Source of the DNA: Patiria miniata | Lineage: Eukaryota | Assembly: GCF_015706575.1 (NCBI RefSeq) | Contig: NW_024037076.1 | Span: 22,669,286-22,733,285 of the forward strand | Direction of reading: 5' to 3' | DNA length: 64,000 nt | Part shown: positions 31,906 to 33,896 of the stretch, piece by piece | How the letters are laid out: each line of letters starts with the position of its first letter | Numbering within the stretch: position 1 is the stretch's first letter | Made by a program: the position numbers and the translations under genes | Notes under the pieces: generated by a model | The model's input: only the letters and a program-made list of their open reading frames with translations | What the model was told of the DNA's origin: nothing | Databases searched by the model: none

Positions 31906-31990
31906 GGAATGGAGGAGGCCATGGAGCAGGTGATATCAGAAAGCTAGCTTACTTTGAATCATCAATGGATGCTGACTATGCACCAGGCAA
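31906..31990 (+). CDS. MVP: MVP exon 14 (source of the downstream tandem array)
   Basis: Translates QNGGGHGAGDIRKLAYFESSMDADYAPGK. Donor aag|gtgagt. Confidence 0.75.
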
Positions 31991-33140
31991 GGTGAGTCCT
32001 CGTTACTCACTATCTCATGTTATGGAGTAGGTGATATCAGAAAGCTAGCTTACTTTGTATCATCTATCGATGCTGACTATGTACCAGGCAAGGTGAGTCC
32101 TCGTTTCTCACTATCTCATGTTATGGAGCAGGTGATAACAGAAAGCTAGCTTACTTTGTATCATCAATCGATGCTGACTATGCACCAGGCAAGGTGTGAT
32201 AACAGAAAGCTAGCTTACTTTGTATCATCAATCGATGCTGACTATGCACCAGGCAAGGTGTGATAACAGAAAGCTAGCTTACTTTGTATCATCAATCGAT
32301 GCTGACTATGCACCAGGCAAGGTGAGTCCCCGTTACTCACTATCTCATGTTATGGAGCAGGTGATATCAGAAAGCTAGCTTACTTTGACTCATCAATCGA
32401 TGCTGACTATGCACCAGGCAAGGTGAGTCCTCGTTACTCACTATCTCATGTTATGGAGCAGGTGATATCAGAAAGCTAGCTTACTTTGACTCATCTATCG
32501 ATGCTGACTATGCACCAGGCAAGGTGAGTCCTCGTTACTCACTATCTCATGTTATGGAGCAGGTGATATCAGAAAGCTAGCTTACTTTGACTCATCAATC
32601 GATGCTGACTATGCACCAGGCAAGGTGAGTCCTCGTTACTCACTATCTCATGTTATGGAGCAGGTGATATCAGAAAGCTAGCTTACTTTGTATCATCAAT
32701 CGATGCTGACTATGCACCAGGCAAGGTGAGTCCTCGTTACTCACTATCTCATGTTATGGAGCAGGTGATAGCTTACAAAGAAAGCTAGCTTACTTTGTAT
32801 CATCAATCGATGCTGACTATGCACCAGGCAAGGTGAGTCCTCGTTACTCACTATCTCATGTTATGGAGCAGGTGATATCAGAAAGCTAGCTTACTTTGTA
32901 TCATCTATCGATGCTGACTATGCACCAGGCAAGGTGAGTCCCCGTTACTCACTATCTCATGTTATGGAGCAGGTGATATCAGAAAGCTAGCTTACTTTGA
33001 ATCATCAATCGATGCTGACTATGCACCAGGCAAGGTGAGTCCTCGTTACTCACTATCTCATGTTATGGAACAGGTGATATCAGAAAGCTAGCTTTCTTTG
33101 ACTCATCAATCGATGCTGACTATGCACCAGGCAAGGTGAG
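31991..33140 (+). repeat. Tandem array (about 12 units of ~100-104 bp) copying the 3' 63 nt of MVP exon 14 plus ~36 nt of the downstream intron
   Basis: Unit GTGAGTCCTCGTTACTCACTATCTCATGTTATGGAGCAGGTGATATCAGAAAGCTAGCTTACTTTG[A/T][A/C]TCATC[A/T]ATCGATGCTGACTATGCACCAGGCAAG. Two shortened units at ~32180-32310 lack the intronic part. A further diverged unit follows a hairpin insertion at ~33718-33815. Confidence 0.85.
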
Positions 33141-33544
33141 TCCTCATTACTCATTATAACACCACACCCACAGATTCTGTGTCTTGATTGGCCGAGAGCG
33201 ATTCACATGTTACTTTCTAATTTTGCTATCTTTCTATGCACGGCCAAAAGTACTATGCGCATAGCAACTAAAGTACTATACCATTAGCAACCAAAGTACT
33301 ATTTCCATGGCGCGGTACTTGTGTGCAAATGCATGCTGGTGTGCGCGTTGCACGTTGTGCGTAGCGCGTATTATTCCAAAGAGAGCGCGCCGCAGACTTG
33401 GGTTCAAACATTTCGTGAAGGGTTAGTTTTTAAAGAGAGAAATACATTTTCCACCAATTTTGTATTGAAATTGAAGTTTATTTCAACTGTGTTCAATAAT
33501 GTAAAATATTAAAATCAAGCAGAATCTGTGGGTGAAGTGTTATA

Positions 33545-33716
33545 AAACAAATATTGAATGCTTTATCTCGTGGTGAAGTAAAACTAGCCTCCCTCGGTGA
33601 TCCATGGACCATTCTATTTTCCCTCGGCTTCGCCTCGGGGAAAATAGAATGGTCCATGGATCACCTCGGGAGGCTAGTTTTACTACACCACTCGAAGCAT
33701 TCAATATTTGTATACT
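33545..33716. mobile_element. Hairpin MITE inserted after the exon-14 tandem array
   Basis: ~75-bp palindromic arms (GAAGTGTTATAAAACAAATATTGAATGCTT...GTAAAACTAGCCTCCC) enclose a CTCGGCTTCGCCTCG loop. Confidence 0.6.
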
Positions 33717-33896
33717 ATCTCATGTTATGGAGCAGGTGATATCAGAAAGCTAGCTTACTTTGAATCACCTTTGGAAGCTGACTAAGTGACTTTGCACCAG
33801 GCAAAGTGAGTCCCACCTTATTCTGTTCATACTATCAGCTGCAACTATTACTATAACCAAACACAGTCATTATTTCTGCTCTTTGTTCAATTTTAG

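Follow-up and report, generated by a model that had tools for sequence, protein, structure and literature searches.

How a gene comes to carry many copies of one of its own exon-intron junctions, and whether its transcripts can be spliced correctly in their presence, is the question raised by an intron of the major vault protein (MVP) gene of Patiria miniata. The gene lies on the plus strand of a 64,000-nt stretch of the assembly GCF_015706575.1 (contig NW_024037076.1, positions 22,669,286 to 22,733,285 of the forward strand), hereafter called the window, and all coordinates below are positions within it. A first-pass annotation made from the letters alone had described a tandem amplification of about 12 copies at 31906-33820; our analysis confirms the array and brings the number of extra copies to 13. 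We consider it probable that the array is a tolerated intronic minisatellite, born of a tandem duplication that spanned the junction between the 3' end of an MVP exon and the 5' splice site that follows it.

The repeated junction belongs to the MVP gene

By homology, the host gene is MVP, as had been proposed. With a human MVP sequence as tblastn query, we mapped about 22 exon segments between 25755 and 39337. The 217-amino-acid (aa) translation of the six exons around the array, used as query for protein and structure matches, aligned to MVP chains of PDB with E = 4e-67 (residues 350-549), and its homologs carry the Pfam domains Vault, Vault_3, Vault_4 and MVP_shoulder (PF01505, PF17795, PF17796, PF11978). 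No protein with more than 72% identity was found when a protein collection was searched with the MVP translation. Splice sites were scored throughout with a crude position weight matrix (PWM) derived from only 20 sites, all of this MVP gene. The parts of the gene on which the argument turns are the following (a slash marks a splice junction).

31907-31991, plus strand: authentic MVP exon, 85 nt, placed by tblastn and splice mapping ("exon 14" of the first-pass annotation)
31992-31997, plus strand: authentic 5' splice site AAG/GTGAGT, with an open frame into exon 15; 9.7 bits by PWM
31992-33896, plus strand: array-bearing intron, 1905 nt
33897-33953, plus strand: next MVP exon, IRDKTRVVRYRCPGNTAVQ; acceptor 11.9 bits by PWM

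The authentic exon is entered in phase 2 and left in phase 0, and it encodes (Q)NGGGHGAGDIRKLAYFESSMDADYAPGK; reading through 31585-31679, 31907-31991 and 33897-33953 gives ...LVLTILQ/NGGGHGAGDIRKLAYFESSMDADYAPGK/IRDKTRVV.... It is the twelfth exon detectable by homology, the number 14 being that of the earlier numbering. The best-matching relative (P0001, 62% identity) has a loop homologous to this exon (IRKVAYFDGAKDPS / EGGGIGDASIRKVAYFDGAKDPS), and the first copy is therefore the authentic one. The exon aligns, with gaps, to a poorly conserved and variable loop at about residues 428-450 of the solved vertebrate MVP chains, a stretch that is reportedly a disordered loop in the rat vault structure. 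The intron downstream is the longest of the approximately 21 mapped in the gene (the others range from 105 to 1339 nt), and it consists of repeat or insertion throughout, except for its last ~90 nt. Its acceptor, at 33897, is the one for which all donors of the array would compete.

Elsewhere in the exon model, six residues (GNGALV) at 31233-31252, ahead of the donor at 31253, are present in 0 of 12 aligned homologs; either they are a lineage-specific insertion, or the donor lies elsewhere and is not obvious.

Anatomy of the array

Tandem Repeats Finder reports a 101-nt period over 31921-33157 (scores 503 and 1623, 94-96% matches) and a 64-nt sub-array at 32132-32324 with 100% matches. All 14 occurrences of the anchor GAAAGCTAGCT in the window fall within 31939-33745; they mark the true exon and 13 extra copies (12 contiguous and one beyond an insertion) at successive spacings of 101, 101, 64, 64, 101, 101, 101, 101, 107, 101, 101, 101 and 662 nt. 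Nothing resembling the repeat unit was found elsewhere in the window. The array is real, and far beyond what chance would produce.

The unit does span the exon-intron junction, as the first-pass annotation had it, but not with the composition given there (about 100-104 bp, made of 63 nt of exon and ~36 nt of intron): the period is 101 nt, and the register of best homology comprises 71 nt of exon (31921-31991, starting with ATGGAGCAGGTGATATC) and 30 nt of intron (31992-32021). CC-ATGGAGCAGGTGATATC is already present in the exon at 31921, and the last 71 nt of the exon constitute unit 0. Nor does every unit recreate a consensus donor. Ten of the 13 extra copies read AAG/GTGAGT, two read AAG/GTGTGA and one reads AAA/GTGAGT; GGCAAGGTGAGTCC occurs 11 times, at the authentic donor and in ten copies, and a twelfth GTGAGT, at 33806, follows AAA. 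The copies are arranged as follows.

32022-33153, plus strand: units 1-12, contiguous block
32022-32122, plus strand: unit 1, 101 nt; donor at 32093
32123-32351, plus strand: units 2-4, one unit with a 64-nt segment triplicated; intact donor at 32322
32352-32755, plus strand: units 5-8, 4 x 101 nt; donors at 32423, 32524, 32625 and 32726
32756-32862, plus strand: unit 9, 107 nt; donor at 32833
32863-33064, plus strand: units 10-11, 2 x 101 nt; donors at 32934 and 33035
33065-33153, plus strand: left part of unit 12; donor at 33136; broken after ...TTACTCA
33727 to about 33835, plus strand: unit 13, a terminal mosaic; donor AAA/GTGAGT at 33806

Unit 1 is the most variant of the internal units (GGAGTAG, TCTATC, TGTACC, TTTCTC), and units 5 and 7 are identical. 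Two units had been described as shortened by loss of their intronic part. The 64-nt spacings on which this was based are present, but they are best read as a single unit in which a 64-nt segment (GTGATAAC...GGCAAGGT, 32132-32323) stands three times with zero mismatches; its two internal junctions read AAG/GTGTGA, so that the consensus donor is lost there. In unit 9, GCTTACAA takes the place of TC. The result is a palindrome at 32774-32799, whose two 17-nt arms overlap and are 94% complementary, and the change looks like a template-switch (quasi-palindrome-templated) mutation. Unit 12 has private changes (ATGGAA, TTTCTTT and CTCATTAC), and its remaining 12 nt (CTATCTCATGTT) pick up again at 33715-33726. 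Unit 13 matches the exon exactly over its first 41 nt; the next 30 nt hold five substitutions, an 8-nt insertion and an in-frame TAA, and its intron-derived part has diverged.

No open reading frame (ORF) runs through the array on either strand. In the interval 31500-34300 there is no tRNA, and Rfam returned only sub-threshold microRNA-hairpin matches (44 bits against a gathering score of 98) on a foldback described below. Single-strand structure of the unit, considered as a driver of slippage, gave a marginal signal only (z = -2.05); the unit holds a 10-nt palindrome, AAGCTAGCTT.

Predicted effect on splicing

Under the minisatellite reading, the donor at 31992 would be recognized as a pair with the real acceptor that lies 85 nt upstream, and would be joined to exon 15; the whole array would then be thrown out as intron, and the predicted mRNA would be unchanged. 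Every choice of a splice site within the repeats leads instead to a premature stop within 1-13 codons, and all non-canonical choices are unproductive. When the real acceptor is paired with any downstream donor, the exon extends into ...PGKVSPRYSLSHVME, with the stop at 13 codons. Each unit offers two candidate AGs, ATGGAG/CAGG and GAGCAG/GTGA, which would delimit pseudo-exons of 65 and 62 nt, respectively; added after the exon, these read QVISES or VISES before a stop, and replacing it they read TILHR or TILQ before a stop. The earlier statement that the unit length is not a multiple of 3 and that inclusion shifts the frame thus stands, and it applies to all three lengths (101, 65 and 62 nt), with a premature stop in each alternative. 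Transcripts with premature stops are substrates for nonsense-mediated decay (NMD). Any leakage to the repeat sites would consequently yield premature-stop transcripts that are candidate NMD substrates.

How far the repeat sites might be used depends on their strength. The array had been called a run of strong decoy sites, which is borne out for the donors: ten match the authentic AAG/GTGAGT, the identity being unbroken from -24 to +35 or beyond in six units, over a shorter span in four, and the repeated donor scores 9.7 bits against a leave-one-out median of 8.3 for the real donors. It is not borne out for the acceptor that had been named, an AG directly before the repeated part of the exon. 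The sequence there is itself exon-derived, and ATGGAG/CAGG scores -1.4 bits, close to the median for AGs across the gene. A plausible acceptor, CAG/GTGATA, lies 3 nt further on; at 8.6 bits it is in the 97th percentile of the AGs of the gene and above 14 of its 20 real acceptors (real median 7.5). A branch-like CTCAC is found ~22 nt upstream of it. Judged by these signals, the unit resembles a 62-nt poison pseudo-exon.

This likeness raises the possibility that the array is a splicing sink, that is, a series of poison pseudo-exons whose sites are used appreciably, perhaps under regulation, so that the degraded transcripts would tune MVP output. The ten donors that share the authentic consensus, most of them within the longer stretch of unbroken identity, speak for such use, as do the strength of the CAG/GTGATA acceptor, the placement of the branch-like motif, the stop that follows every inclusion or extension, and the fact that the array appears old yet has been kept. 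However, the geometry of the unit is unfavorable. The spacer from a donor to the next acceptor is 39 nt, far under the 105 nt of the shortest intron in the gene, and the branch-like CTCAC lies ~18 nt from the donor, at which distance U1 and U2 binding should interfere through steric hindrance. Moreover, the splice signals bear no mark of selection beyond array-wide homogeneity. About 12 of the 101 columns vary (a count from the unit alignment), in exon-derived and intron-derived parts alike, and the lack of variation at the nine donor positions is not significant (estimate 0.88^9 = 0.3), so the decoy donors give no indication of having been selected. The acceptor scores, too, have to be read with the 20 sites behind the matrix in mind. 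We thus regard a splicing sink as unlikely.

Recursive splicing was considered separately. AAG/GTGAGT does have the juxtaposed dinucleotides of a recursive splice site, but the AG abutting each GTGAGT scores below the 90th percentile of acceptors and is not the strong abutting 3' splice site that such a site has, which argues against this class.

Origin and history of the array

The variants that distinguish the copies are informative about how they arose. Units 1-12 all read AATCGATG, with a C in place of the G seen in both the exon (AATGGATG) and unit 13 (TTTGGAAG). Since this G>C change is common to units 1-12 and absent from the exon and from unit 13, we conclude that the units go back to one founder duplicate and not to repeated copying of the exon. 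The mean identity of units 1-12 is 96.7% over a 53-nt exon-derived core, and neighboring units are the most alike (mean differences of 1.18 at lag 1 versus 2.33 at lag 3). Variants also come in blocks, with GTA in units 1-4 and 8-10 and GAC in units 5-7 and 12. Both the blocks and the likeness of neighbors fit local slippage or unequal exchange, in agreement with the origin by replication slippage or unequal crossing-over that the first-pass annotation had put forward.

We therefore suggest the following history for the minisatellite. One early junction-spanning duplicate would have gained the G>C change, and this founder would then have been amplified to the 12 internal units via replication slippage or unequal exchange, with ongoing exchange keeping units 1-12 about 97% alike, as expected of concerted evolution. 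The terminal unit would have decayed, and unit 12 would have received two small inverted-repeat elements. The ancestral intron was probably ~100 nt long, because only the last ~90 nt of the present one are free of repeat or insertion, and array and insertions together would have stretched it to 1905 nt. The array itself probably has no selected function.

The extent of the first duplication might have been larger than the present unit. The 8-mer TCATGTTA, which stands just 5' of the ATGGAG of the unit (e.g., 32647-32654), recurs at -11 to -4 of the acceptor of the exon (31896-31903); its frequency is 6.5e-5 per position, so that the coincidence has P ~0.002, a value obtained post hoc. This hints at a first duplication that covered the whole exon and its acceptor (120 bp) and was followed by a 19-nt deletion of the acceptor. 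A different alignment of the flank of unit 13, which keeps TCAT..TAT in the downstream intron, competes with such a whole-exon origin.

Unit 12 is interrupted, within its intron-derived part, by 561 nt (33154-33714) that hold two elements.

33154-33545, no strand assigned: 392-nt element with 26-nt terminal inverted repeats (TIRs), 92% complementary
33547-33711, no strand assigned: near-perfect hairpin (foldback, resembling a miniature inverted-repeat transposable element, MITE), 165 nt, with arms of 54 nt and 17 nt

A hairpin MITE in or after the array had been reported at 33545-33716; the hairpin is there, inside unit 12, but the 392-nt element next to it had been overlooked. The latter has TA dinucleotides on both flanks and no second copy in the window. 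The hairpin folds as DNA with -76 kcal/mol (z = -23), and both elements contain only spurious ORFs of at most 63 aa. No clean target-site duplication was found, nor does the composite 33154-33714 have a matching direct repeat at the unit-12 breakpoints.

A relative of the hairpin is present at 9861-9978, with 48-nt arms that are 85% complementary. It shares 76% identity and an identical loop (TCGGCTTCGCCTCG) with the inserted copy, which suggests a dispersed foldback or MITE-like family.

The half-decayed unit 13, the private changes of unit 12 and the two insertions point to an array that did not arise very recently and that the gene has tolerated. The same structures bear on the possibility that the locus really has one or few copies and that the repeat was inflated by the assembler. 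Assemblies are prone to error at tandem repeats of ~100 bp, and a metagenome scan with a degenerate pattern of the unit gave 0 matches and hence no independent sequence of the locus. Pure stutter by an assembler is nonetheless an improbable source of consistent substitutions ordered in blocks, and it makes no such structure as a 6-nt change, a 64-nt triplication, a 561-nt insertion of two elements into a unit with private variants, or a decayed terminal unit. We accordingly hold the assembly expansion raised by the first-pass annotation to be rather improbable.

Relatives of the locus differ from it in their introns. In one (L001, 62% aa identity), the six corresponding exons, the repeated one included, form a single uninterrupted ORF without the repeat (172-744). 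The closest (L004, JACSEG010010355.1), with 89% aa identity and 73-86% nt identity in exons, has seven exons of the window gene (34415-37865) contiguous at 887-1684; its contig starts within the intron upstream of exon 16, short of the array intron. Two others (L002 and L003) are distant and intronless. The fewer introns in these relatives may reflect either marked intron loss or gain, or, for L004, a processed copy.

Weighing the minisatellite reading

Several points count against a tolerated minisatellite. That the array is removed silently is something we infer from sequence. Where duplicated 5' splice sites were made to compete in experiments, an identical donor further downstream can reportedly win (Reed and Maniatis 1986; Eperon et al. 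1993). Ten decoy donors might therefore cost much productive mRNA, and a long neutral persistence of the array would then be harder to argue. In addition, the copy number rests on a single assembly, and of the relatives compared, one lacks the intron (L001) and one starts past it (L004). On the other side, the window holds further tandem arrays, from which it follows that this genome is prone to them.

Two further explanations fare worse than those discussed above. In the first, the array would act as a "splicing rheostat", with its eleven same-consensus 5' sites and about ten 62-nt poison pseudo-exons actually used, and MVP output set via NMD by copy number or by the levels of splicing factors; such a device, made from an exon junction of the gene itself and tunable through the number of repeats, we consider very improbable. 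That the units are mutually exclusive alternative versions of the 3' part of the exon, which would diversify the MVP loop, is excluded at the sequence level and has practically no chance of being correct, for the exon frame (incoming phase 1) would indeed give near-identical peptides, GDIRKLAYF[EVD]SSIDADYAPGK, but no AG acceptor yields that frame, and both acceptors lead to the stops given above, whether the unit is added to the exon or replaces it.

Provided that the array is real, as its sequence suggests, this locus is a natural experiment on splice-site choice, in which one acceptor faces eleven donors of the same consensus 101 nt apart and each wrong choice is flagged by a premature stop. 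It would also illustrate how an intron of ~100 nt can become roughly 16 times longer when its own boundary is amplified and insertions then accumulate. For annotation it is a hazard: gene predictors and RNA aligners may choose any one of the repeated donors when they place the junction of exons 14 and 15.

Other repeats in the window

Just past the last MVP exon, a 5.1-kb complex satellite occupies 40604-45708 (unit GAAAAATGTAAGGTTAACCCCTTGCAATTTTTGATGAAAAATGCC...), with nested periods of 35, 54, 89, 153 and 207 nt and 75-98% matches. Two two-copy tandem repeats with a related unit of 161-163 nt (95-97% matches) lie ~620 nt apart at 55009-55331 and 55950-56279, and a 49-nt tandem repeat of 2.1 copies (94% matches) is found at 16069-16171.

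Comparison with known systems

The array reveals no new kind of element or mechanism. Structurally it is a minisatellite: 13 extra copies stand head to tail with a 101-nt period (sub-periods of 64 and 107 nt) and 94-100% matches, and a homogenized interior (96.7%) borders on a half-decayed terminal unit 13. Our search of the literature for duplicated 5' splice sites in competition and for minisatellites in MVP returned nothing specific. Cases are known in which a minisatellite inside a gene reshapes its exons and introns (De Grassi and Ciccarelli 2009, PMC2812944), and the same paper cites human introns that arose from tandem arrays (Zhuo et al. 2007 PNAS). Like the MVP array, intragenic minisatellites consist of head-to-tail units of tens to ~100 bp, expand by slippage or unequal exchange, are homogenized internally and can carry splice signals. 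In contrast to them, the MVP unit is taken from the host's own exon-intron junction, so that a real donor has been multiplied ten times, and the array lengthens an existing intron, creating neither a new intron nor a longer exon.

The inserted elements resemble MITEs and foldback elements in being small and non-coding, with TIRs or a near-perfect hairpin, and the hairpin has a diverged second copy; they differ in that neither shows a clean target-site duplication and that the 392-nt element is single-copy in the window.

Tandem duplication over an AG/GT proto-splice site is an established route to new introns or to shifted intron positions (the Rogers model; Lehmann et al. 2010, PMC2891723). 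The MVP array shares with this model the duplication of a splice motif, AG/GT being present as AAG/GTGAGT in 10 extra units, and a length that is not a multiple of three, from which unspliced variants are expected to be degraded. It departs from the model in that no new intron is made in coding sequence, the predicted mRNA is unchanged, and the segment has been amplified 13-fold and not duplicated in a single event. Intron gain was rejected because the whole array lies beyond the authentic donor, within an intron that already exists.

The likeness to poison (NMD-coupled) cassette exons lies in the single unit, which looks like a short exon of 62 nt between an acceptor and a consensus donor, with a stop codon if it is included. 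Poison exons, however, are normally single and often ultraconserved, whereas the candidate in MVP is a young, homogenized array of such units, best placed, in our view, among the minisatellites that live within genes.

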